Assembly (NCBI GenBank): GCA_031364845.1
Contig: JANLWX010000031.1
Location: 1-20,317 of the forward strand
Direction: 5' to 3'
Length of the DNA: 20,317 bases
From: Candidatus Eiseniibacteriota bacterium
GTDB lineage: Bacteria > Eisenbacteria > RBG-16-71-46
Shown here: positions 4,623 through 18,244 of the stretch, piece by piece
How positions within the stretch are numbered: the first letter of the stretch is position 1
Layout of the letters: each line of letters starts with the position of its first letter
Notes under the pieces: model-generated
Seen by the model: the letters and a program-made list of their open reading frames with translations, nothing else
What the model was told of the DNA's origin: nothing
The model's database searches: none
Position numbers and translations under genes: made by a program

Positions 4623-5987
4623 ATGAGCAAGAAGATCGTTGTCGTCGGAGCCGGAGCCGCAGGACTGACCGCGGCGTTGCGTGCCGCCGAAGCCGGCGCG
4701 CAAGTCACCCTGTTGAACGCGCATCCCAAGATCGGGCTGAAAATTCTGATGTCGGGCGGCACGCGCTGCAACGTGACGCATCGCGAAGTGAGCGAGCGCG
4801 ACTATCACGGCGGCTCACGGCCGTTCGTGGCGCGCGTGCTGCGGGCGTTCACGGTGCTGCAGACGCTGGAGTGGTTCGATGCGCTGGGAGTACCGCTCAA
4901 GCTCGAGGAGACCGGGAAGTACTTTCCGGCGAGCGATGATGCGCAGACGGTGCTCGATGCGATCGTCGGCGCGGTGGAGCGGGCGGGGGTGGAGGTGCGG
5001 TACGGGGCGCGGGTGGTGCGGGTGGAGCGTGTTGGTGCTGATGGCGGCTCGGAGACCGGAGGCTCTGCCGCGCCGGCGCGATTCCGATTGGGGATTCAGA
5101 ACGTCGGTGACAGCGCAGCGTTCGCCGATGTGAGTGCGGTCGGCCGCTCGCACTGGGAGCCTGTCGCCGCAGAGCCCGACACGTGGATAGAAGCTGACGC
5201 CGTGATCATCGCCACCGGCGGACTCTCGTTTCCGCGCACCGGCAGCGACGGAACTGGCTACTCTCTCGTGGAGGCGCTTGGACACACGCTCGAACCCACG
5301 GTCCCCGCGCTCACACCGCTCGCCGCGGACGACCTGCTCTGCCGCACCGCGCAAGGCGTCACGCACGACGTCGAGTTGTCGCTATGGCGCGGAACCAAAC
5401 GCGTGGAGACCGTGGCCGGCTCGATGCTGCTCGCGCACTTCGGCTACACCGGACCCGCAGCACTCGATCTATCGCGACACTGGATGCGCGCGTCACTAAA
5501 TGCACGCGACGAAGGCGGCGCTGCCGCGCCGCTGCGCGTGACGGCGAACTTCATGCCCGGGATGAATCGAGAGTCGCTACTCGAGCGCTGGATCTACGTG
5601 GGGTCACGCGATTCTCGCGCTAACGTGCGGCGGTTCTTTGGCGCATCCATGCCGGATCGGCTCGCGCTCGAGTTGTCGCGCGAGTCGGGAGTGCATCCGA
5701 CCATGTCGCTGAGCCAGGTCTCGAAGTCGGACCGCGCGACCTTGATCATGCGCGTCGTCGAACGCGAACTGCCGGTGACCGGAACGCTCGGCTACGAGAA
5801 AGCCGAAGTGACCGCCGGAGGCGTGCGATTGAACGAAGTGAATCCGAGCACGCTCGAGTCTCGCACGACACCGGGAGTGTTTCTGTGCGGGGAAGTGCTG
5901 GATGTGGAGGGGCGGCTGGGTGGGTTCAACTTTCAATTCTCGTGGTCATCGGGAACGGTGGCCGGGCGAGCCGCGGCATCGACATGA
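4623..5987 (+). CDS. HI0933/BaiN-family NAD(P)/FAD-dependent oxidoreductase
   Basis: Motifs VVVGAGAAG, GLKILMSGGTRCNVT, ATGGLSFPRTGSDGTGY, VTAGGV and GEVLDVEGRLGGFNFQ are all diagnostic of the HI0933/YhiN family. Confidence 0.92.
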   Translation: MSKKIVVVGAGAAGLTAALRAAEAGAQVTLLNAHPKIGLKILMSGGTRCNVTHREVSERDYHGGSRPFVARVLRAFTVLQTLEWFDALGVPLKLEETGKYFPASDDAQTVLDAIVGAVERAGVEVRYGARVVRVERVGADGGSETGGSAAPARFRLGIQNVGDSAAFADVSAVGRSHWEPVAAEPDTWIEADAVIIATGGLSFPRTGSDGTGYSLVEALGHTLEPTVPALTPLAADDLLCRTAQGVTHDVELSLWRGTKRVETVAGSMLLAHFGYTGPAALDLSRHWMRASLNARDEGGAAAPLRVTANFMPGMNRESLLERWIYVGSRDSRANVRRFFGASMPDRLALELSRESGVHPTMSLSQVSKSDRATLIMRVVERELPVTGTLGYEKAEVTAGGVRLNEVNPSTLESRTTPGVFLCGEVLDVEGRLGGFNFQFSWSSGTVAGRAAAST

Positions 5988-6031
5988 GCGCGCTGCCCAG
6001 GGCAGCGCCTCTGGCATGCCAAGCGGCATCG

Positions 6032-6060
6032 TTGACGCGTGCGGAGTCGCGCCGTACCGT
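6032..6060 (+). promoter_or_regulatory. Putative sigma70 promoter for the TIR gene and cassette run
   Basis: TTGACG (6032-6037), 17-bp spacer, TACCGT (6055-6060). Lies 40 bp upstream of ATG 6100, with a GGGGAGG RBS in between. Confidence 0.5.
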
Positions 6061-6099
6061 CGCCGCGTCCCAAGATGTTGCAAGGGGGAGGATTGCGAA

Positions 6100-6825
6100 A
6101 TGGCTAGATGCACAGCACCTGTGATGGGCCATCGCTCAGCGAGCGCCGCCGCGAACTGCCCTGCATGCGGTAGTAGGTATGGACGATATGGCAGCCATAG
6201 CAGCTTCAGGTCGTACTCGTCCCCGTCGTACTCCTCTTCTGGGAGTAGTGGGGGCGGCCGGAGCAGCAGCGGGTTCGGCAGCAGCGCAAGGCCTCGCTGG
6301 TCGCCAGCCGGATCGTCAGTGGTCTACACGCCGACCGAGGTTCTGGCACTTACGCCGGTCCGCAACAGAATCGAGAACCTAGCGAAGCGGCCTGACCTTC
6401 GGGATGTCTTCCTATGCCACGCGTGGGACGACCGGCAGGGGGCCGCCAAGGAACTTCACGATCTGCTGGAGTCACGTGGTGTGCGGGTCTGGTTCAGCGA
6501 GAAGGACGTTGGCCTCGGCGTGCCGTTGCTCCGTGCCATCGACAAAGGCTTGGCGAACTCGCGAGTCGGAATCGTGCTGGTGACCCCAGCGTTGCTGGGC
6601 CGCCTCCCGGCAGAGGGCATCGCCGACAAGGAACTTTCGGCACTCCTCGCAGGTGAACGGCTCGTCCCAGTTGTGCACGGGACGACGTATGAAGCTCTCC
6701 GCGAAGTCAGCCCTCTCCTGGCCTCGCGAAGCGGCCTGAGCACTGCGGAAGGTTCGATGGTAGGTGTCGCGGCCAAAATTGCTGAGCTCGTTACCCTTGA
6801 GCTCTTTCCCGCAACCAAACCGTGA
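6100..6825 (+). CDS. TIR (TIR_2-type) domain protein with N-terminal C-H-C-C motif and Ser/Gly-rich linker, 241 aa
   Basis: RBS GGGGAGG before ATG 6100, preferred over 5902. TIR motifs DVFLCHAWDD, GVRVWFSE, AIDKGLANSRVGIVLVTP and ADKEL (putative catalytic E178). N-terminus MARC-x6-H-x8-CPAC. Confidence 0.88.
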   Translation: MARCTAPVMGHRSASAAANCPACGSRYGRYGSHSSFRSYSSPSYSSSGSSGGGRSSSGFGSSARPRWSPAGSSVVYTPTEVLALTPVRNRIENLAKRPDLRDVFLCHAWDDRQGAAKELHDLLESRGVRVWFSEKDVGLGVPLLRAIDKGLANSRVGIVLVTPALLGRLPAEGIADKELSALLAGERLVPVVHGTTYEALREVSPLLASRSGLSTAEGSMVGVAAKIAELVTLELFPATKP

Positions 6826-6829
6826 ATCG

Positions 6830-6927
6830 CGGTAAAATCTAGCATCGCAACGACCGGAAGGGCGGAGCGGCCCCTTGTGATTCCAACGCGACTTGTCCGG
6901 CCGGTGCTGAATGCTTATTCGTTAGCT
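6830..6927 (+). mobile_element. Degenerate integron attC site
   Basis: Starts a few bases after the TIR stop and ends in an R' box GTTAGCT (6921-6927). Imperfect inverted arms AGCATCGCAACGACCGGA (6841-6858) / TCCGGCCGGTGCTGAATGCT (6896-6915). The expected R'' box is eroded to GGTAAA (6831-6836). Confidence 0.5.
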
Positions 6928-6948
6928 ACGCAAGAGAGGACAACGGTA

Positions 6949-8004
6949 ATGGCAAAGACTAAGCGAAAACCCTCCCGGCCAACAACGCCGTCATCAAGTG
7001 GCGGGCGAGGCAGAGGCGGCCCCAAGTACCCTCGGCATAACCTTGAGAGGGCTCTACGTGCACCACGGGCCATCCTGGAACAGAACGCCGGGCACGCTTG
7101 CACAGATCGCGAGGCCGCTGGTTTTGTCGGGATCGGCTATACGGGCGAGTTCGGGTCTGAGCTTGCCTCTGCTATCAAGTACGGCCTTCTGGAACGACCC
7201 GAAACTCAGAAGGTCCAGCCAACCGAACTTGCCAAGAAGATCATACGTCCCCACACGCCCGGCGATGAGGTCGACGGGCTCAGGGAAGCGGCACTCAAAG
7301 CGCCAGAGATCTCCGGGGTGTACGCGCACTATCGTGGCGAGAATCTTCCCGACCGGCAGTTCTTTGCCAACACGCTGGCCGACCGATTCAACATCCCGGC
7401 CGAACGCGCCGACGAGTTCACCTCCATTTTCAAGGACACGCTCGGGACCGCAAAGCTGCTGGAGGAGCATGACGGGCGTATCAGACTCCTTGACGTCTCG
7501 CAGCAGCCGGCTGGCCAGGCAGCGAGCGACGAATCCATAAAGCGACTCGGAAAGACTGCGAACGTGCAGAGCGGCGACACGTGCTTCGTCATGATGCCGT
7601 TCGCCGATCCGATCGGGCGGTACTATGAACTCGTCTACGAGCCAGCGATCAAGAAGGCCGGTCTAGTTCCAGTGCGTGCCGATGCGGACATATTCGCAAC
7701 AGGCAAGATCATGGAACAGGTCTGGGCAGGGATCAACCGCGCCAAGATTCTCGTGGCCGAACTCACCTCTCGGAATCCGAATGTATTCTATGAACTCGGC
7801 TTGGCTCATGCTCTGGAGAAGCCAGTCGTGCTCGTGTCGTCGAACGAGGGTGACGTGCCGTTCGATCTTCAGCACATCAGGGTTATCTACTACGACGTAA
7901 CCGATCCTTTCTGGGGCGACAAACTGATCAAGAAGGTCGCGGAGAATGTCCTATCGGCACTCAACAACCCCGAAGAGGCGATGTTCAAGAAAGCAGGGAG
8001 GTAG
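6949..8004 (+). CDS. Putative winged-helix N-terminal domain fused to a nucleoside 2-deoxyribosyltransferase / N-glycosidase-like domain (351 aa), carried on a gene cassette
   Basis: GAGAGGA RBS before ATG 6949. C-terminal motifs CFVMMPF, VRAD, ILVAELTSRNPNVFYELGLAHALEKPVVL and PFDLQHIRVIYY match the NDT-like/TIR-like Rossmannoid family. The N-terminal YPRHNLERAL...LASAIKYGLL...TELAKKI pattern suggests a winged helix (inference). Confidence 0.8.
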   Translation: MAKTKRKPSRPTTPSSSGGRGRGGPKYPRHNLERALRAPRAILEQNAGHACTDREAAGFVGIGYTGEFGSELASAIKYGLLERPETQKVQPTELAKKIIRPHTPGDEVDGLREAALKAPEISGVYAHYRGENLPDRQFFANTLADRFNIPAERADEFTSIFKDTLGTAKLLEEHDGRIRLLDVSQQPAGQAASDESIKRLGKTANVQSGDTCFVMMPFADPIGRYYELVYEPAIKKAGLVPVRADADIFATGKIMEQVWAGINRAKILVAELTSRNPNVFYELGLAHALEKPVVLVSSNEGDVPFDLQHIRVIYYDVTDPFWGDKLIKKVAENVLSALNNPEEAMFKKAGR

Positions 8005-8062
8005 CTAACAACAGCATGCAGCGGACGGTGCTTCGCTGCGCCGCTGATGCTGATCGTTAGCC
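8003..8062 (+). mobile_element. Integron attC recombination site (about 60 bp)
   Basis: R'' AGCTAAC overlaps the stop codon and R' is GTTAGCC (8056-8062). Arms CAGCAT[G]CAGCGG[A]CG and CGCCGCTGATGCTG pair perfectly except for two extrahelical bases, with an unpaired spacer next to the R boxes. Confidence 0.88.
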
Positions 8063-8093
8063 GGACGGACGACCAGAGAGCCAGGACGAGAAG

Positions 8094-8282
8094 ATGAAGC
8101 TCTGCTTCGTGATAATGCCGATCGGTTCGGGCGACGCTTACGATGTGTATCTCAACCGATACACCAACATCATCAAGCCCGCCGTGAAAGATTACCAACA
8201 AGACGGCGCCAGAATCTTCGGGCTCTTCCGAGAATCGAATGGCTGCATTCACTGCCCGCGCGTGACGCCGTTTGAGATTTGA
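8094..8282 (+). pseudogene. Truncated NDT-like cassette gene (N-terminal fragment only)
   Basis: MKLCFVIMPIG...YTNIIKPAV resembles TCFVMMPF...YELVYEPAI of the upstream protein. Similarity is lost after about 40 aa, and there is no RAD or NPNVFYELG motif and no following attC. Confidence 0.7.
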
Positions 8283-8310
8283 TCCTCAGCTGCAGCGGAC
8301 ACGGGAGAGT

Positions 8311-8350
8311 AGAAGGGCGGCCGAACCCGGTTTGTTCGGCCGCCCTTCTT
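8311..8350. terminator. Strong hairpin, probable terminator between the convergent cassette and hsd units
   Basis: Perfect 16-bp stem AGAAGGGCGGCCGAAC (8311-8326) / GTTCGGCCGCCCTTCT (8334-8349) with a 7-nt loop. The U-tract is weak. Confidence 0.65.
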
Positions 8351-8991
8351 CTGGCAGATGCAGCGTGTTGGCGGTGCCGCCCGCCGAGTCCACTGGAGCG
8401 TGGATCCGGACGCCGCTCGATATCTCGACCGTTGCCCCGCTGCTCGCCGTGCGCGTCACAGTCCAGCGCGCGGGCCGCGCAGGCGACTCGTTCACGCAGT
8501 TGGGCGGATCGGCTCCGCAATCGCACCGCGTGACCGTGCCACAACTGTTCGAGAACATGGGGCTCCATCGGTCTTTGTCGGACTGCTCGACAGGTGGAAG
8601 ACGAGCCAATGGCAACAGATTGCGTCCATCGTGGCTCGTCGACCTCGTCTGAAGTTAGAAGTTAGCATTCAACTTCCAGCGGGCGTCGAGCAGCGGGACG
8701 GTTGCGGGGAGGGCGGCTAGGTGATGAGTCGCTTTACCTGGCGGGCACGGGATGACGACCAGGCCAGGCCGGTCGATTGGAACGCGAAGTTTGCGCGCGG
8801 AGATCGGGACGGTGACGCTACGATAAACTAGGAGCCCGGGCAGAGACGAACGGTACCGGCCGCTGCTGGAGTTTGTATTGGACGGAACGCCACGATCAGC
8901 GTCCTTCACCTTTGTCGTTCGCGAACAATTCCAGGAGCAATGCCGCGATGTCCTCGCCGCGCGCGTTTGGCAAACCTCCGGAGGCTGCCCA

Positions 8992-10620
8992 TCATGCATC
9001 GAGATGGTGAACTGCGGCCGCGGCGAAGGAGGCGTGAGCGCCGCGCGCGGCGCTTAGCCGCTCTTCCAGACGGTCGAGCAGGCGCATCAATTCCTTAACG
9101 CGGTCTGCGATGCGCTGTTGCTCGACCCACGGTGGAATCGGCATTGCGAGCGCGAGCAGCGCTTGCGTAGGCAGCTTGCACGTCCCGTGCGTGGACCTTT
9201 CGACCAAGCGGAGCACGGATCGCTTGAGACCTTTCGTCGCGATCAGGAGGAATTGCGCGATTACTGGATCGAAGGGGACGAGTGCTTTCATGTCCTGATT
9301 TACGGTGACCTCATTCACAGTCAGGGCGGTAGGGAAGGAGTGTGCGAGGATCATCCCCCGTACGACCATCAGCAGCGATCCGGGCGGCACCCTCTTGACG
9401 GCAGATCCGGTCAAAGCTGACTCCGTGACGTGATCCTCAGAGTCGGCGATGAAGTCACGCTTCATGTCCTTAGGAGTCACCCACGGAATCTGGCCGCCCC
9501 AAAACGCAGAATTGCTTTTGCTCGGTGTTCCCCCGCCCAGTACCCCGCCGAGCTTGCTGATGGACGACCACTCCCACCCATTCGGTAACGTGAAGGGTGC
9601 TTCGTCGGATGGGAGGCCGGACATTCGCCCGGCGAGTCGTTTGCGGGCGGGTTCATCTGCTGGATCCTGCGTTACGAGCTTCCCCCTCACCGCCAGATCG
9701 AGCACCGTCTGCCGCAGCGGCGCGATGTCGTTCGGGTCGATCACCAGATCGTCCACTCGCTCCGCGAAACGATTCCACGCGACCTCGATCTCTTCGGGCG
9801 TGTCGGCTTGGCGAAGCGAGCCGAGGGTTGAGTCGCGGGCAGACGCTCGTGTGGCGTCGCGGGAGGATCCCGCGGCCTCAAGTCGGGCGAGCAAGCCCAT
9901 CAGTTCGTCCACGCGGGCGACGACGCGGTGCTGCTCGGCGAGGGGTGGGAGAGGGACGAGTAGGTTCGTCAACGAGGCCGAGTTCAGGGTCTGACCCTTG
10001 ACGGCTGCGTTCGTCTCGACGCCTGCGGCGACCAGCGGAAGGAATCGGAACATGTAGCCGTCCATCCCGGCAACTGCTGGGAACACCGAGATGATGGCCT
10101 CATTGTGGTAGCCATCAACCGCGAGTCGGGCCACCTTCCCGATGGTCAGCTTGAAGCTCATCAAGATCGTGCCCTTTGGCACCGGCGGAGTGCGGAACAC
10201 CTCGGTCGCCGCCTTGTCGCTCACCCGGCGCTTCGTCGCGGAGACTTCTCCGTAGTGCTCCATGTCCGCGATGCTCACCCACGGATGACCGCCTTCGTCT
10301 TCCCAGAACCTGGAGTCCTTAGTTGGGGGAGTCCTGCCGAGCGAGAAGTTCGCGATTTCCGAAAGGCGCACCCAGCACCAGGAGGTAGGTAGCTCCCAGC
10401 GGGCATCCAGCGCGTCAACCGCCGCCGCGTCACTTGCCCTGCTGCCGAACCCGCTGTCGCGGATCTTCTGGATCAGGACGCTTGCGGGTTCATTTGCCGG
10501 GTCCTGAGGCACGAGCCGCCCTCGCACGGCGAGTTTGAGAACCAACTCGCGGAGCCTCTCAACGCCCTGCGGAGCTTCGGCCACGGCCTCAAACGCAGCG
10601 ATCAGGTCGTGCGGCGTCAA
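8992..10620 (-). CDS. hsdS: Type I restriction-modification specificity subunit (two TRDs, EcoAI-like layout)
   Basis: Duplicated conserved blocks LAVRGRLVPQDPANEPA / LAVRGKLVTQDPADEPA, LPTSWCW / LPNGWEW and PLPPLAEQHRVV / PIPPWVEQQRIA. The TTG start overlaps the hsdM stop (TTGA). Confidence 0.93.
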   Translation of the reverse strand: MTPHDLIAAFEAVAEAPQGVERLRELVLKLAVRGRLVPQDPANEPASVLIQKIRDSGFGSRASDAAAVDALDARWELPTSWCWVRLSEIANFSLGRTPPTKDSRFWEDEGGHPWVSIADMEHYGEVSATKRRVSDKAATEVFRTPPVPKGTILMSFKLTIGKVARLAVDGYHNEAIISVFPAVAGMDGYMFRFLPLVAAGVETNAAVKGQTLNSASLTNLLVPLPPLAEQHRVVARVDELMGLLARLEAAGSSRDATRASARDSTLGSLRQADTPEEIEVAWNRFAERVDDLVIDPNDIAPLRQTVLDLAVRGKLVTQDPADEPARKRLAGRMSGLPSDEAPFTLPNGWEWSSISKLGGVLGGGTPSKSNSAFWGGQIPWVTPKDMKRDFIADSEDHVTESALTGSAVKRVPPGSLLMVVRGMILAHSFPTALTVNEVTVNQDMKALVPFDPVIAQFLLIATKGLKRSVLRLVERSTHGTCKLPTQALLALAMPIPPWVEQQRIADRVKELMRLLDRLEERLSAARGAHASFAAAAVHHLDA

Positions 10621-12149
10621 TCTTTCTCCGAGAGAAGCGCCGCAGCGAGAACCTTTCGCAGTTCGTCTCGCAGCGCCGCCGCTGCCGCGCGCTCATTGTC
10701 GAAACGCGCCAGCAGGGTGTCGGGATCCTCGTGCTTGTCCTGCGGGGCGTTCGGGTTGGCGATGTCGAGGTTATAGCCGCGCTCGCGGATTTGCTCGATG
10801 GTGACCTTCCACGCGAGGGACGTCTCTTTCCGATCTGTCCACCACGCCTTCTCCGGCTCGAACTCCTCGATACGCATCGGCTTCGTCTTCGAGTACGAGA
10901 TGCAGCCCTCGGGGTACGGGTGCTCGTAGTACCACACCGCCTTCGTGGGCTGCCCCTTCGTGAAGAAGAGCAGGTTCGTCTTGATGCTCGTGTACGGCGC
11001 GAACACGGCGTTGGGCAGACGCACGATGGTGTGTAGGTCGCACTCGGCGAGCAGATGCTCCTTGATGCGCGTCTTCACGCCCTCGCCGAATAGCGTCCCA
11101 TCGGGCAACACCACTGCCGCTCGCCCGCCCGCCTTGAGCATCTCGACGATCAGCACGAGGAAGAGGTCTGCCGTCTCGCGAGTGCGGAACGCGACGGGGA
11201 AGTTGTTTTCGATCCCGTCCTCCTCCATGCCGCCGAAGGGTGGGTTCGTCATGATCACATCGACTCGGTCCTTCGAACCGATGTCGCGGAGCGGGCGCGA
11301 GAGCGTGTTGTCGTGGAGGATGCCAGTCGGCACGTCGATGCCGTGGACGATCATGTTCGTGACGCAGAGCAGGTGAGGAAGCGGCTTCTTCTCGACGCCT
11401 CGGATGCTGGCCTGAAGCCGGGCCTCTTGCTCGGGGGTCTTGACGTGCGACTTCCGCATGTTCTCGATGGAGCAGGAGAGGAAGCCTCCCGTCCCGCAGG
11501 CGGGGTCGAGAATCGTTTCGCCGAGCTTGGGGTCTACCATGTCCACGGCGAACTGCGTCACCGCCCGAGGGGTGTAGTACTCGCCCGCGTTCCCGGCGCC
11601 CTGGAGTCCCTTCAGGATCGTCTCGTAGATGTCGCCGAAGAGGTGACGGCTCTTCGCGTCATTGAAGTCGATGTCGGCCTGCAGGCGGTTGATGACCTGC
11701 CGCAGAAGCGTCCCCGACTTCATGTACTGGTAGGCATCCTCGAAGACGCTTCGGAGCAGGAGACGGCGACTTCGGAGCTTCTGGGCAGCCCTCGCCTTCG
11801 CGCTGTCCCCATCGACCTTCGGGCCGATCTCCATGCCCTTCAGCGCGGGGAAGAGAGTGTTGTTCGCGAAGTCGAGAAGGCTGTCGCCTGTCACGCCCTC
11901 GGGGTCGCTGGCCCACGCCTTCCATCGCAGATCTTCGGCGCGGCGCGTCTCGCCGTTCTCTTGCCACGCTACATCCACGAGGGGCGAGCGGAAGTCGTCC
12001 TCGATCAACTCGAGTTCGCGCTCGCGGTCGTCCCAAATCTTGAGGAACAGGAGCCAGACGAGTTGGCCGATGCGCTGTGCGTCACCATCGACGCCCACGT
12101 CCTTCCGCATGATGTCCTGAATCGACTTGATGGTGGTAGCGAGCGACAT
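10617..12149 (-). CDS. hsdM: Type I restriction-modification N6-adenine methyltransferase subunit
   Basis: EcoAI-like N-terminus IKSIQDIMRKDVGVDGDAQRI, GEYYTPR, motif I DPACGTGGF, motif IV NPPF, and VLPDGTLF. Confidence 0.96.
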   Translation of the reverse strand: MSLATTIKSIQDIMRKDVGVDGDAQRIGQLVWLLFLKIWDDRERELELIEDDFRSPLVDVAWQENGETRRAEDLRWKAWASDPEGVTGDSLLDFANNTLFPALKGMEIGPKVDGDSAKARAAQKLRSRRLLLRSVFEDAYQYMKSGTLLRQVINRLQADIDFNDAKSRHLFGDIYETILKGLQGAGNAGEYYTPRAVTQFAVDMVDPKLGETILDPACGTGGFLSCSIENMRKSHVKTPEQEARLQASIRGVEKKPLPHLLCVTNMIVHGIDVPTGILHDNTLSRPLRDIGSKDRVDVIMTNPPFGGMEEDGIENNFPVAFRTRETADLFLVLIVEMLKAGGRAAVVLPDGTLFGEGVKTRIKEHLLAECDLHTIVRLPNAVFAPYTSIKTNLLFFTKGQPTKAVWYYEHPYPEGCISYSKTKPMRIEEFEPEKAWWTDRKETSLAWKVTIEQIRERGYNLDIANPNAPQDKHEDPDTLLARFDNERAAAAALRDELRKVLAAALLSEKD

Positions 12150-12172
12150 GGCGTTACCTCACCCCATTCCCT

Positions 12173-14503
12173 TCATGCGACAGGTGCGTAGAGGGCGGTC
12201 TCAAGCTCGTGCACAGCGCGCTCGTAGCCTTCCTTCCCGCCGAAGTGGCCGACCAACTGAACCGGCGTCCCGAGATCCGAAAACGGCTGCACGCGCAGCA
12301 CGCTCATGTCCTCGATGGGAGCAAGCCCCTCGCTCGCGTACTTGTCGAGCAGCGCGTCGAGAACCGCGCGTGCCTGCTTGCCGTACTTGGTGAACACGTC
12401 GCGCTTCTTCACTTGCTCGGCCCGCTCACGCCGAGTGAGTGGGGGGCGGTCGTAGACGATGTGACAGATCATGTCGAATGAGTCCATGTCGTCGCCGACC
12501 CCGTCCCGCAGCGCCTCCAGCAGCACGCCCTGCTCACGCAGTTCGTCGATGATCACTTGCTTGCGCTCGGCGGACGTCCAGCGGCTGAGGAAATCATCGA
12601 AGGTCTTGAACTGTCGCGCAACGGCGTTCTTGGTGTAGTCGGCCAACGACTCGGTGATCAGCCTGCCGTCCTTGTCGTAGTACTGGACGCGCTCCGCCAT
12701 GACGGACACGGGGACACCACTCACGACGAACTTCGTGCGGCCATCTGGCTCGGGCGGCGGAGCCGGGGGATCGGGCGTACCGGGCGGCTCCGGTGGAACA
12801 GGTGAGCCACCCGGAGGTGGGTCGTAGATGACAACTGGCTCGCCATCCCAGTCGGGGTCGGCGAACAATTCCGTCGCCTTCTTGAAGTCCATGATCGTGA
12901 ACCAGAGCTTCCCCGTCTCTTCGTGGATGCGGGTGCCGCGACCGATGGTCTGTTTAAACTCGATCATCGATTGGATCGTCTGGTCGACGACGATGAGTTT
13001 GCAGGTCTTCGCGTCCACCCCTGTCGTGAGCAACTTCGAGGTCGTCGCGATCACGGGGTACCGCTTCTCCGGGTGGATGAAGTCGTCGAGGTGCTGCTGG
13101 CCCCCCTCGCTGCCACCCGTGATGCGGACCACGAACTTCGAGGTATTCCCGGCTTCAGCGGGGATCTGCCGCGCCACTTCGTTCACGAGTGCGGAGCGCA
13201 TTCGCTCAGCGTGGTCGATGTCCTCACAGAAGACGATGGTCTTGCCGTATGGGTCCGTCCCCACGAGGTACGTGACGATTCTCTCTGCCACGCGCTTCGT
13301 ACGCTCCTTGAGCACGAGCACGCGGTCCATATCGCGCAGGTTGTAGATCCGGTCCTCGACCACTTGACCGTGGTCGTCCGTCATGCCTGCGGGAGGCCGC
13401 CACCCTTGAAGGTCCTTGTCGAGGTCGATGCGGACGACCTTGTAGGGGGCGAGGAACCCATCATCGATGCCCTGCTTGAGGGAGTACGTGTACACGGGCG
13501 TGCCGAAATATGTAAGCGTTGAAACCTCTCGGGTCTCTTTTGGCGTGGCTGTCAGCCCCAGCTGGATGGCGGGCTGAAAGTAGTCCAGGATCTCGCGCCA
13601 TGCGCTGTCCTCCTTCGCGCTGCCCCTGTGGCACTCGTCGATGACCACAAGGTCGAAGAAGTCCGGGGAGAACTGCTTGTAGACCTGCTTCTCCTCTTCC
13701 TCACCCGTGACGGCTTGGTAGAGGGCGAGGTAGACCTCGTACGACTTGTCGGCGATGCGGCCCTGCACCTTCGTCATGACGCGACCGAACGGCTTGAAGT
13801 CGTTCGTGATCGTCTGGTCTATGAGGATGTTGCGGTCGGCGAGAAAGAGGACACGTTTTACCACGCCTGCCTTCCACAACCGCCAGATGATCTGGAAGGC
13901 GGTGTAGGTCTTCCCAGTGCCGGTGCTCATCGCGAGCAGGATGCGACGTTGTCCCCTCGTCACCGCCTCGATCGTGCGCTGGATCGCGATGCGCTGGTAG
14001 TAGCGCAGTTCCCGACCTGAGGCGTCCTCGTGGTAGGGGTACCTGATGATCTTGTCGGTCTCGTTCGTGATGTCCTTCCACGCTCGGTATCGCGCCCAGA
14101 GATCATCGGGCGACGGGAACTCATCGAGGGTCAACGTTCGCTCGACAGGGGTGGAGCTTCCAGTGCGGTCGTGGAAGAGGAACGCATCGCCGTTGCTGGA
14201 GAAGACGAACGGTACGTCGAGCGTTGCGGCGTACTCCAGCGCCTGCTGCATCCCGCCGCCCACAGGGTGGCTGTTGTCCTTAGCCTCAACGATTGCGAGC
14301 GGGAGATTGTTCTGGAAGTAGAGGAGGTAGTCGGCTCGCTTCTGCTTGCTGCGCGCTGCGATCTTGCCGCGCAGGATCACGCGGCCAGCGGTGAAGGAGA
14401 ACTCGCGGCGGACTTGCGTGTGAAGATCCCACCCCGCGCGCGTGATCGCGGGGGTGATCAAGTTCTGGCAGATCTCGGTCTCGTTGAGGTCCTTCTTGCT
14501 CAT
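12173..14503 (-). CDS. hsdR: Type I restriction endonuclease subunit R (EcoAI/EcoEI-like, 776 aa)
   Basis: Nuclease motif ADY...IVEAK, Walker A MSTGTGKT, DECHR, TATP, LLTTGVD and QTIGRGTR. C-terminal PLTRRERA...ARAVLDALLDKY resembles the EcoEI R C-terminal domain. Confidence 0.96.
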   Translation of the reverse strand: MSKKDLNETEICQNLITPAITRAGWDLHTQVRREFSFTAGRVILRGKIAARSKQKRADYLLYFQNNLPLAIVEAKDNSHPVGGGMQQALEYAATLDVPFVFSSNGDAFLFHDRTGSSTPVERTLTLDEFPSPDDLWARYRAWKDITNETDKIIRYPYHEDASGRELRYYQRIAIQRTIEAVTRGQRRILLAMSTGTGKTYTAFQIIWRLWKAGVVKRVLFLADRNILIDQTITNDFKPFGRVMTKVQGRIADKSYEVYLALYQAVTGEEEEKQVYKQFSPDFFDLVVIDECHRGSAKEDSAWREILDYFQPAIQLGLTATPKETREVSTLTYFGTPVYTYSLKQGIDDGFLAPYKVVRIDLDKDLQGWRPPAGMTDDHGQVVEDRIYNLRDMDRVLVLKERTKRVAERIVTYLVGTDPYGKTIVFCEDIDHAERMRSALVNEVARQIPAEAGNTSKFVVRITGGSEGGQQHLDDFIHPEKRYPVIATTSKLLTTGVDAKTCKLIVVDQTIQSMIEFKQTIGRGTRIHEETGKLWFTIMDFKKATELFADPDWDGEPVVIYDPPPGGSPVPPEPPGTPDPPAPPPEPDGRTKFVVSGVPVSVMAERVQYYDKDGRLITESLADYTKNAVARQFKTFDDFLSRWTSAERKQVIIDELREQGVLLEALRDGVGDDMDSFDMICHIVYDRPPLTRRERAEQVKKRDVFTKYGKQARAVLDALLDKYASEGLAPIEDMSVLRVQPFSDLGTPVQLVGHFGGKEGYERAVHELETALYAPVA

Positions 14504-14718: not shown

Positions 14719-17661
14719 CTACTTCAGGATCAACGGCCTAGTAAGCACTGTTTCCCCCGCCTGTAAGCGACAGAAATACATGCCGCGAGGAAGCCCCGAC
14801 GTGTTCCACCTGACATCATGAACACCGGCAGTTTGAGGTGCGTTCTCCAAGGTTGTCACTCTACGGCCGGCGATGTCATAAACGGCAATCAGCACGCTGC
14901 GCGGCGTGGGCAGCGAATATTGCAGCCCAACAGCGTTGGCCGTGCTCTCAATGGTCTTCAGCCGTACTTCGGCGACGATATCGTGGCCTTTTCCATTCCC
15001 CTCAGGACATCCTTCGAGCGAGTCATAATTCTGCCCGTCGTCTACGCACGTCCTGTGTCCTTGGTCGTGTGGAACACAAACTTGTACGGAGCCATCGCAA
15101 GACCCGCCACGCCCGTCGCTCGCTGTAAACCAAATCGTGTAGACGCGCCCATTGCCGCTCCCCAAGCGTTCGGCGCGCACCGCGACCCTTCCATCGGGAT
15201 AGATCACTGCATCAGGGCATTCATTGCTCTTGTCGTCCACTCCGATCTCGTCTTCAATTGCCTCGACGTATCGTCGATCTCCAATAATTGCGCTCGCAAC
15301 CCGAACGTGGCTCCCCGCCGTTGGCTCATCTTGCGTCACCGCTGTCACCACGGTGGCGACAGGATCACCGTTCGCGTCAGTGATCCCTTGAATTGTGATC
15401 GGAACTAACTCGTGGCCGCGAGCCTTGAGAGTGGGCGGTACCGCGTGCGCAGTGGCGCAACTTGGATCGGCATTCGGCCCACGGCCGGAGTTGATAAGTA
15501 CGCTCACCGTGTTGGAGCCAGCATTGGTCACTGCCAGGTCCAGCTTCCCATCGCCGTTGACGTCCCCGATTGCGATTGAGTAGGGAAAGCTCCCTACGCC
15601 GAAATCGCTCTTAGCCTGCACGGTTCCGTCACCGTTGCCAAGCAGAACAGAAACCGTATTCGAAACCGCGTTTGCCACCGCCAAGTCCAGCTTTCCGTCG
15701 GCATTCAAGTCGCCCATCGTCACACAGTAGGGATTGCTTCCAGTGCCGTACTCGATCCTTGGTCCGAACGTGCCATCCCCGTTACCCATCATCACGGAAA
15801 CCGTGCTCGGACCGACGCATGCTGCCGCCAAGTCAGGCTTGCCGTCACCGTTTAGGTCGCCAACGGCCACAGATGACGGATGGTTCCCCGTCTGGAAGTT
15901 GCGGCGCGGACCAAACCCCCCACCGCCACTCCCCAAGAAAACTCCGACGGTCGCGTTTTCGAAGTCTGCCGTCACCATGTCCAAGTCGCCATCCCCGTTG
16001 AGATCGCCAACCGCGACAGATTGAGGGCCGCGCTCCGTTCCAAAATCGGCCTTCGTTCCAAACGTCCCATCGCCAATCCCGCGCAGTACCGAAACATTGT
16101 TTGAACCTTGGTTAGCCACGGCCAAATCCAGCTTGCCGTCTCGAGTGATGTCCCCGATCGCCAGTGCAACGGGTGTCACTCCGGTAGAAAAGTCCCTCTT
16201 GAATCCAAGCGTGCCGTCTCCGTTGCCACGTAAGATCGAGGCGGTTTGGGAACCCGCGTTCACTACCGCGACGTCGGCCTTTGCATCACCGTCAAAATCG
16301 CCGGCCGCCACCGAATACGGCAAGTTGCCAGTCGTGTAGTCGGCCTTGGGCCCGAACGTGCCGTTCCCGATTCCACGCAAGACCGACACCGTGCCAGAGC
16401 CGCGATTCGCCACCGCCAATTCGGGCTTGCCGTCTCCGCTCAAGTCTACAATTGCGACCGAATAGGGAGAATCGCCCGAATCGCAATCGGTCACGGGTCC
16501 GAATGTGCCATCCCCGTTCCCTAGTCGAACGGACACTGTACTGGAGAAGTAGTTTGTCGTTGCCAGATCAGGTGTCGTGTCTGCATTAACATCTGCTATC
16601 GCTACGGAGTACGGAGTTTCACCGGTCCCGAATGCTCTCTGCGAACCGAATGTGCCGTTCCCTATTCCCAGCAAGATCGAGACCGTATTGGAATGGACGT
16701 TGCCCACGGCGAGGTCCTGCCTTGAGTCGCCATTGACATCCGCAACCGCCACAGAGAAAGGAGCGGTCTCGGTGTCATAGTCTGTCTTGGATCGAAACGT
16801 TCCGTCACCGCTTCCCAATAGCACGGAAACCGAGTTCGACATTAGATTGGCGATCACAAGGTCAACCTTGTGATCGCCGCTGAGGTCTGCAATCGCTACA
16901 GAATAGGGCTCGTTGCCAGTGGCGTAATCGGTTCGGGGAGCAAAGGTCCCGTCTCCGTTACCCAGCAGAACGGAAACGGAGTGCGATTCTGAGTTCGTCA
17001 CCGCCAAGTCGGAGTGCCTGTCGTTATTCAAGTCGGCGACGGCGAGGGAAATAGGTGTAGCTCCGGTTCCGAAATCGGTCGGCGATCCAAATGTGCCAAT
17101 GCCAGTCCCCAAGAGTATTGAGACAGTGTTTGAGCTGATATTTGCAGTGGCAAGGTCTGGTTTGCCGTCCGCGTTGAAGTCCCCGATTGTCACGCATCGC
17201 GGATCGCCCCCCGTCGGAAAGAGGCTGGGTATGCGGAATGTGCCGTCGCCATTACCCAAGAATACAGCTACTCTATTAGACGTAAGGTTGGCAGTCGCAA
17301 GGTCAGGCTTTCCATCGCCATTTAGATCACCGATAACGACAGAGACTGGCGTCCTGCTGCCAGCCCCGTACTCTGTTTGGGATGCGAAGGTGCCATCACC
17401 ATTACCCAAGAGCACCGAGACGGTGGCGTAGTTAACGTTCGCGGTCACGAGATCGGGGCGTCCATCCGCGTTAAGATCGCCAATTGCCTCTGCGAAGGTG
17501 GCGCTACCCGCGTTGAACGAGAGATACGGGGCGATAAACAAGGACTCCGCATCTGCGTCCCCAGGTACGGCCGCAAACACCAGCGCGCAGGCGATCAAGA
17601 GAGCCCCCTGCGCTTGACGATGCGTCTTTAACGATGGCTCCGACTCGTGCAAACGATTCAT
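14719..17661 (-). CDS. Secreted FG-GAP/VCBS repeat protein (14 repeats) with an Ig-like domain and a T9SS-CTD/FlgD-like C-terminal domain
   Basis: Signal peptide (ALLIACALVFAAVPGDADA-E). Fourteen units of about 49 aa with consensus xDxNxDGKxDLxxxN...VSVLLGNGDGTF. RAERLGSGNGRVYTI domain. C-terminal VYDIAGRRV...W...LPRGMYFCRL. Confidence 0.9.
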   Translation of the reverse strand: MNRLHESEPSLKTHRQAQGALLIACALVFAAVPGDADAESLFIAPYLSFNAGSATFAEAIGDLNADGRPDLVTANVNYATVSVLLGNGDGTFASQTEYGAGSRTPVSVVIGDLNGDGKPDLATANLTSNRVAVFLGNGDGTFRIPSLFPTGGDPRCVTIGDFNADGKPDLATANISSNTVSILLGTGIGTFGSPTDFGTGATPISLAVADLNNDRHSDLAVTNSESHSVSVLLGNGDGTFAPRTDYATGNEPYSVAIADLSGDHKVDLVIANLMSNSVSVLLGSGDGTFRSKTDYDTETAPFSVAVADVNGDSRQDLAVGNVHSNTVSILLGIGNGTFGSQRAFGTGETPYSVAIADVNADTTPDLATTNYFSSTVSVRLGNGDGTFGPVTDCDSGDSPYSVAIVDLSGDGKPELAVANRGSGTVSVLRGIGNGTFGPKADYTTGNLPYSVAAGDFDGDAKADVAVVNAGSQTASILRGNGDGTLGFKRDFSTGVTPVALAIGDITRDGKLDLAVANQGSNNVSVLRGIGDGTFGTKADFGTERGPQSVAVGDLNGDGDLDMVTADFENATVGVFLGSGGGGFGPRRNFQTGNHPSSVAVGDLNGDGKPDLAAACVGPSTVSVMMGNGDGTFGPRIEYGTGSNPYCVTMGDLNADGKLDLAVANAVSNTVSVLLGNGDGTVQAKSDFGVGSFPYSIAIGDVNGDGKLDLAVTNAGSNTVSVLINSGRGPNADPSCATAHAVPPTLKARGHELVPITIQGITDANGDPVATVVTAVTQDEPTAGSHVRVASAIIGDRRYVEAIEDEIGVDDKSNECPDAVIYPDGRVAVRAERLGSGNGRVYTIWFTASDGRGGSCDGSVQVCVPHDQGHRTCVDDGQNYDSLEGCPEGNGKGHDIVAEVRLKTIESTANAVGLQYSLPTPRSVLIAVYDIAGRRVTTLENAPQTAGVHDVRWNTSGLPRGMYFCRLQAGETVLTRPLILK

Positions 17662-17956
17662 GTGGTTCTCCGAAGAGCGAGGTGGCGAGTCTGACCAGCG
17701 GCGACTATTGGCTTGAGGGAAGGACGAGGGCGACCATGTCGGAAACGGCTACAGTATGCCTCGGGTGCGGGCTATTCAAATGGCGTAGCGCACGAAGCGT
17801 GCCGTGTTCGTGACGGTGTAGAGCCTGTCCCAGATTCTGTGTAAGTGCCTGACGGCGTGACGCTGGTAGTCTCTTCTCACCAAGGAAGGGACACCATGAA
17901 CGAAGATTCGCAAGGAGCTGCTCGACGACTTGGAAGAGGCTGAGGGAGGTTCAATC

Positions 17957-18244
17957 ATGAAGAAGAAGGTGACGTCCCCCGGGCGCCTGGCAAGGCAGCT
18001 CAGCATCCCGAAGAGTCGGAGCGTGGAGGCTGTACTGAAAGCGCAGTTGATCGCTGCGATCGTCCGTGAAATCGACCGTCGCCACCTCGCCCACGTGGAG
18101 GTGGCGACGCGCTCGGGGCTTCCTCGAAGCGCGGTAACAGGCATTCTCTCGGGCAGCCTACAAAAGGTGACGATCGACCGAGTGCTTCGCCTCCTCGAGG
18201 CGGTGGGGCTGGAGGCGAGCGTCAAAGTGAAACGAGCGGCCTGA
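17957..18244 (+). CDS. XRE-family helix-turn-helix protein (HigA-like antitoxin type), 95 aa
   Basis: GGGAGG RBS before ATG 17957. LKAQLIAAI...LAHVEVATRSGLPRSAVTGILSG...KVTIDRVLRLLEAVG matches XRE/HTH_37-type regulators. Confidence 0.8.
   Translation: MKKKVTSPGRLARQLSIPKSRSVEAVLKAQLIAAIVREIDRRHLAHVEVATRSGLPRSAVTGILSGSLQKVTIDRVLRLLEAVGLEASVKVKRAA

Follow-up and report, generated by a model that had tools for sequence, protein, structure and literature searches.

Gene content and borders of the segment

We analyzed a 20,317-nucleotide (nt) stretch of DNA from Candidatus Eiseniibacteriota (contig JANLWX010000031.1 of assembly GCA_031364845.1; hereafter the window), which is one whole contig of a 97%-complete genome of 233 contigs. 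A reading of the sequence alone (hereafter the original prediction) had pointed to positions 6032–8282 as a candidate defence unit in which a TIR gene and NDT-like genes might cooperate. As it had proposed, this region contains three co-oriented open reading frames (ORFs) on the plus strand (6100–6825, 6949–8004 and 8094–8282), referred to here as genes 1, 2 and 3. The features of the locus are as follows.

4623..5987, plus strand: HI0933-family flavoprotein gene (Pfam PF03486 and TIGR00275 above cut-off)
6100..6825, plus strand: gene 1, stand-alone TIR gene, 241 residues (Pfam; PADLOC PDLC00424 at full length; structure comparison)
6831..6925, plus strand: possible decayed attC site 3' of the TIR gene (arms pair in the fold; z +0.48, not significant)
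6949..8004, plus strand: gene 2, 351 residues, predicted tandem winged helix plus MilB/NDT/DNPH1-like N-glycosidase domain with E282 (Pfam; structure model; structure match)
8004..8061, plus strand: canonical 58-bp integron attC site overlapping the gene 2 stop codon (z -4.3; E 9e-11)
8094..8219, plus strand: gene 3, 42-codon 5' stub of a 380-residue NDT-coil-NDT gene (90% identity to P0003)
8308..8352, no strand: strong hairpin, perhaps a terminator or the central part of a damaged attC site (z -4.3 for 8276–8380)
8668..8725, plus strand: displaced and decayed 3' end of the HI0933 gene (second copy), forming the segment's right border (nhmmer)
8992..14503, minus strand: intact type I restriction-modification (R-M) operon hsdR-hsdM-hsdS, outside the inserted segment (Pfam, PADLOC)

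The putative promoter suggested at 6032 agrees with the consensus in 8 of 12 letters (read by eye) and falls below the threshold of the promoter scan. No noteworthy Rfam family was found within 5500–9500.

The borders were located by nhmmer with a profile built from the 3' ends of 18 HI0933 relatives. The last ~60 nt of the HI0933 gene (5925–5987) form the left border, and a second HI0933 3' end lies at 8668–8725 (E 1e-7; just two hits in the whole genome fall below E 0.1, this one included). The three genes thus lie within a 2.74-kb segment flanked by the two copies, with hsdRMS outside it. The type I operon is intact and on the minus strand, as originally described; the three genes are not directly convergent on it, as 709 nt containing the right border separate 8282 from 8992. 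The suggestion that they back up the R-M system found no specific support, the operon lying outside the inserted segment, and it is best described as a separate neighbor.

The same GCA/TTCAAC right junction is found in 7 of 7 relatives (chosen for having two HI0933 3'-end copies on one contig), at distances of 1.2 to 40 kb from the HI0933 gene. Sequence comparison thus marks the HI0933 3' end as an apparent recurrent insertion site in this group. Displaced copies of it reach up to three per genome (G002, G017; junction loci L213–L219 and L222–L223). Cargo between the borders in relatives includes type III R-M, Sir2-HerA, primase-polymerase, efflux pumps, trehalose genes and hydrolases, and in one relative (G014) a tyrosine integrase lies directly behind the HI0933 gene. 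Islands of the dusA type reportedly also integrate into protein-coding genes; the HI0933 segment shares with islands in protein-coding genes a duplicated piece of a core gene as its bounds, the target here being the 3' end of the HI0933 gene.

The run was originally described as punctuated by attC sites. One significant site was found (8004–8061), with R and L boxes and extrahelical bases, and the other two (~6831–6925 and 8283–8378) are partial by eye and unscored. Near-identical copies of the intact site (up to 91%) occur in many genomes of the phylum. Three close TIR relatives run on into attC-like sites at the position matching 6831–6925, and close TIR relatives at four loci (L003, L013, L018 and L048) adjoin attC-like sites; the attC covariance model contains only 9 pairs and was trained partly on loci that were later searched, which makes those searches partly circular. 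Integron cassettes have been described as carriers of phage defences (Kieffer et al., 10.1101/2024.07.02.601719; 10.64898/2026.03.17.712381). With integron cassettes that lack an integrase, the locus shares an attC-bounded single defence-like gene, and it differs in that only one intact attC is present.

The first 42 codons of gene 3 are 90% identical to a 380-residue protein (P0003) that has two NDT-like domains joined by a predicted coil. The homology ends near 8219, ahead of the catalytic motif, and the reading frame continues through unrelated sequence up to 8282. We rejected a frameshift, because the homology never resumes in six frames up to 9000. An assembly error was rejected too, because a second sample, from the same study, yielded an identical contig that spans the break. 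Gene 3 is a dead stub. Out of the three related Rossmannoid N-glycosidase-type folds that had been proposed, two were recovered (TIR_2 in gene 1, and a weak NDT match in gene 2), and the third is only a stub without catalytic motif. Literature searches found no study of the P0003 family of 380-residue double-NDT proteins.

The TIR protein and the predicted winged-helix-NDT protein

Gene 1 matches Pfam TIR_2 (E 2e-14); no NCBIfam model names the protein. It has an N-terminal C4/H11/C20/C23 motif, a Ser/Gly linker and a TIR domain of the AbTir/TcpB type. The four Cys/His residues are invariant in the alignment of the family, and the motif likely binds zinc. The nearest solved structures are TcpB, PdTIR, BtTir and AbTir (TM 0.77–0.86 on the target). 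In profile alignments to PdTIR and AbTir, E178 corresponds to the catalytic glutamate and I174 to the tryptophan position of the WxxxE motif; alignments to TcpB are gapped differently around this position. E178, at the position originally given for it, is invariant in all 76 aligned sequences, and every one of the 76 has Ile or Val where the tryptophan would be. Gene 1 thus shares the aligned catalytic glutamate with AbTir, TcpB/BtpA and PdTIR, but differs in the Ile/Val substitution and in its Cys/His motif and linker, in place of which those TIRs presumably have a coiled coil.

An aromatic residue at this tryptophan position is described for all cyclase TIRs by Manik et al. (10.1101/2022.05.07.491051). 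Because gene 1 carries Ile where cyclase TIRs carry the aromatic residue, we infer plain NAD+ hydrolysis, and gene 1 is likely an AbTir/TcpB-type NADase that hydrolyses NAD+ without making a cyclic signal.

The gene 1 family has at least 542 matches in species-representative genomes (the best 80, at 64–86% identity to gene 1, were taken for the locus analyses) and is found on 195 plasmids at 80% coverage, while a near-full-length match was found in only 1 of 205 other genomes of the phylum (2/206 with the genome itself). The family is therefore widespread and patchy. It occurs as a lone gene on a plasmid of Klebsiella and within an island of E. coli. The E. coli homologue (70% identity to gene 1) is the only whole gene flanked by the cluster-8 primers given in a 2024 phage-panel study (PMC11350192), with 0 and 2 mismatches, and was probably cloned alone there. 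The single-protein E. coli TIR defences TIR-V, TIR-VI as well as TIR-IX (Wang et al. 2024, PMC11350192) are likewise short stand-alone TIR genes; the termini of TIR-V and TIR-IX listed in the supplement of that study do not fit the gene 1 family.

Gene 1 also matches, at full length, the PADLOC model PDLC00424, which is labelled ThsB (E 2e-126), and ThsB-like or caspase genes lie near a few of its relatives (L013, L026, L030, L059 and L070). Gene 1 might accordingly be an orphan Thoeris sensor (ThsB) whose signal is received by an effector encoded elsewhere. We consider this highly improbable: the fold is AbTir/TcpB-like; STALD (ThsA) has no match in the 97%-complete genome, in a search that detected its positive control; and a SIR2-SLOG ThsA was seen near only 1 of 80 relatives, on the opposite strand and with its own ThsB (neighbor scans of TIR loci covered 150 and 99 partly overlapping proteins of 858 called ORFs). 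Macro was not found in a genome search run without a positive control. Effectors of Thoeris types I, II and IV (SIR2-SLOG, Macro-TM, caspase) are not among the scanned window proteins. In agreement with the original prediction, no family match to ThsA, cyclase, reverse transcriptase (RT) or pAgo was found among the window proteins, of which 11 were scanned with Pfam and 7 with PADLOC.

Gene 2 has a weak Pfam NDT match (E 2e-5), and its structure model has a pLDDT of 85. Residues 205–344 of the model resemble MilB, NDTs and DNPH1, followed closely by TIR folds; the best match is the CMP glycosidase MilB (Z 13.2, rmsd 2.6, 133 residues aligned). E282 is also where it was originally placed and is invariant in 50 of 50 aligned sequences. 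Residues 30–180 are modelled as two helix-helix-helix-hairpin units, which we predict to be tandem winged helices from the helix/strand pattern of the model and not from a library match. The model contains helix-strand modules, not repeats, and the Pfam scan of gene 2 found no TPR, SLOG or DUF4062 match.

Searching with this N-terminal module, we were able to identify 841 representatives. Among the best 150 of these, 21 are at least 270 residues long, including 11 fused to NDT and 6 fused to Cap12/Pycsar-type TIR; L018 is a further winged-helix-TIR fusion. The Cap12-type TIR fusions suggest a one-gene sensor-effector family. Tentatively, and with somewhat less than even confidence, we propose that gene 2 belongs to an undescribed one-gene immune family in which a tandem winged-helix phage sensor is combined with an exchangeable killer domain (NDT/MilB-like or Cap12-type TIR), which would be a retron-free and signal-free use of NDT domains. 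No NCBIfam model names gene 2, the ESM Atlas has only unnamed clusters for it, and literature searches on winged helix, NDT and antiphage returned only retron papers. Gene 2 is full length in 1 of 206 genomes of the phylum. It was not found on viral contigs, and none of 87 matching plasmid records covers 80% of it.

Retron type II-A effectors (Ec86/Eco1, Sen2), as described by Mestre et al. (2020, PMC7736814), also combine an NDT-like domain and a winged helix in one protein; there the NDT is N-terminal and the winged helix C-terminal, whereas the order in gene 2 is reversed. Such retrons also need an adjacent RT and an msr-msd RNA. No RT was found beside gene 2 or among 134 scanned neighbors of its relatives, and the two RTs of the genome are on other contigs. 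Swarozyc has been described as a DUF4062 TIR-like NADase with a helix-turn-helix/winged sensor (10.64898/2026.05.01.722283). As a working analogy, gene 2 may share with it the one-gene sensor-effector design (a winged-helix-type sensor plus a Rossmannoid glycosidase), but gene 2 has no DUF4062 match, and the likeness drawn here is one of design.

Co-occurrence of the two families

Reciprocal searches of loci and whole genomes led us to reject a cooperating TIR-NDT pair. A profile of the gene 1 TIR family matched in none of 74 gene 2 loci (49 with 900 nt or more upstream, of which 36 to 38 are distinct), and a full-length gene 2 was found by profile in none of 80 TIR-bearing genomes (single-domain matches in 13) and in none of 27 viral TIR loci. 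The most frequent neighbor family of gene 1 relatives is found beside at most 6 of 80 TIR loci. The cooperating unit originally proposed is therefore not supported, as the two families are never together in the other loci examined and gene 1 has no cyclising aromatic residue, while the alternative raised with it, independently captured single-gene defences, agrees with the lack of co-occurrence and with the attC at the gene 2 stop codon.

The locus had also been said to match no system that could be named. A TIR gene with a CMP-hydrolase has, however, already been named type VIII Thoeris, described as a ThsB TIR that makes cyclic ADP-ribose (cADPR) plus ThsI, a CMP-hydrolase-TPR effector (Yirmiya et al., 10.64898/2025.12.03.692087). 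What is shared with that system, as described there, is a TIR gene beside a gene of CMP-hydrolase/NDT fold and a proposed attack on the nucleotide pool. The differences are that ThsI has TPR and responds to cADPR, where gene 2 has the predicted winged-helix module instead; that the TIR-effector operon is conserved there, but the pairing of genes 1 and 2 is not (0/74 and 0/80); and that Ile174 of gene 1, at the tryptophan position, argues against cADPR production.

Two apparent gene 2 partners near TIR relatives were rejected on inspection, one being a winged-helix-TIR gene (L018) and the other an NDT-TPR-S gene two genes away (L048). The first lies in an unrelated genome (L018:72–2246), where an attC, a gene 1 relative, another attC and a winged-helix-TIR relative of gene 2 follow each other in the module order seen in the window. 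The second (L048:4320–6275) encodes an NDT plus TPR-S protein like the type VIII Thoeris effector, two genes from a start-damaged gene 1 relative, and aligns with gene 2 only across the NDT domain. Other arrangements include a QueC-like gene, a ThsB-type TIR, a gene 2 relative and a TIR_2 gene, all in one direction (L099:4668–8087), and an IetAS-like ATPase/S8-protease pair, the commonest neighbor family, near gene 1 relatives in six alphaproteobacterial loci (L014, L016, L020, L023, L035 and L070).

Other features of the window lie outside the segment. Directly 3' of hsdS, a remnant at 8888–8976 (minus strand) corresponds to the 3' end of a gene that lies on contig C78 and that we take to be a GNAT acetyltransferase. 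The gene at 14719–17661 (minus strand; GC content 58% versus 66% for the genome) encodes a secreted FG-GAP repeat protein of 980 residues; its repeats are 147 nt in length, and its C-terminal domain is FlgD/T9SS-like. At 17930–18244 (plus strand) is an HTH_37 antitoxin-like gene, and a similar gene is found 3' of the HI0933 gene in a relative (G161). A 24-nt inverted match (96%) between 6267–6290 (the TIR linker) and 10433–10456 (hsdS) is probably due to chance.

Origin and proposed function of the genes

We consider it probable that the segment is what is left of an island, that its two intact genes and the stub were likely captured separately, and that each intact gene likely encodes an anti-phage nucleotide-destroying enzyme acting on its own. 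A site-specific integrase, since lost here, would have inserted the segment at the 3' end of the HI0933 gene, and gene 2, probably also genes 1 and 3, would have arrived as integron cassettes. Upon a phage cue, gene 1 would likely oligomerise and turn NAD+ into ADP-ribose without a cyclic signal. Gene 2 would likely use its winged-helix module to sense a nucleic acid or a protein of the phage and would then cleave the N-glycosidic bond of a nucleotide or of NAD+, arresting the infected cell.

Several observations weigh against this reading. An attC test independent of the searches above was passed by 3 of 48 distinct gene 2 relatives and 1 of 76 TIR relatives, so a cassette origin is a minority state. 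The integron integrase IntI has no TIGR02249 match above cut-off in the 97%-complete genome (without IntI, an intact integron was rejected; the integrase beside one gene 2 relative, L092, is XerD), and no island integrase was found on this contig. The 32 clones tested against 111 phages in the panel study cited above probably included the E. coli homologue of gene 1, and 20 of the clones were reported as non-protective (PMC11350192). A gene 1 family member is directly followed by a winged-helix-TIR gene in L018, and in five distinct loci a TIR gene of another family is found within two genes of gene 2. Defence context supports the reading only with a filter: requiring PADLOC matches to cover at least 70% of the profile length, we found them in 16 of 138 genes adjacent to gene 1 relatives and 8 of 80 adjacent to gene 2 relatives, as compared to 1 of 126 control genes (p 2e-4 and 3e-3), and without the filter the counts are 20/138 and 9/80 versus 10/126 (p 0.12 and 0.46), not significant. 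The 126 control genes were taken from 19 arbitrarily chosen stretches of TIR-bearing genomes. Counting was done by hand, the 70% filter was set after the control had been seen, the ORFs were called with a rough script, and genomes that are related do not count as independent.

The TIR genes near gene 2 relatives raise the question of a loosely coupled signalling, in which gene 2 would be a Thoeris-like effector triggered by a product (e.g. ADP-ribose or cADPR) of a nearby TIR, here gene 1. The TIRs in the five loci belong to three different families, and in two of these loci (L099 and L114/L115) the TIR gene is directly upstream of and co-oriented with gene 2. In type VIII Thoeris, a TIR goes with a CMP-hydrolase effector, and the best fold match of gene 2 is a CMP glycosidase; moreover, gene 1 is the sole TIR_2 match in its genome. 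We nevertheless hold such coupling to be quite improbable: none of the 74 gene 2 loci has the gene 1 TIR family and most are without any detected TIR, gene 2 has neither a TPR nor a SLOG signal-binding domain, and gene 1 does not have the cyclising aromatic residue. TIR genes cluster around gene 1 relatives too, as expected in defence islands.

The genes might also be passengers without anti-phage role, i.e. leftover cargo of a dead element, or part of nucleotide clean-up or stress response (gene 2 being a DNA-binding regulator plus a damaged-nucleotide glycosidase). Housekeeping roles are established for DNPH1 and NDT, the segment shows decay (a stub, a mutated border and the loss of its integrase), and relatives often carry non-defensive cargo between these borders (e.g. 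efflux pumps, trehalose genes and hydrolases); the lack of significant enrichment without the filter points the same way. Both genes are intact, however, with invariant catalytic glutamates; they are patchy across phyla yet of high identity; and the swapping of modules with Cap12-type TIR speaks for effectors that kill the cell. We regard a passenger role as unlikely.

The negative outcome for the cooperating pair removes a false lead, in that being neighbors in a defence island does not make a system. The HI0933 3' end offers a place to collect cargo, partly defensive, in an uncultured group. The part of the locus worth testing is the gene 2 family, whose effector is exchangeable: should gene 2 protect on its own, it would contribute a sensor module that is combined with either TIR or NDT effectors, and would help define the target of NDT-like domains in immunity.

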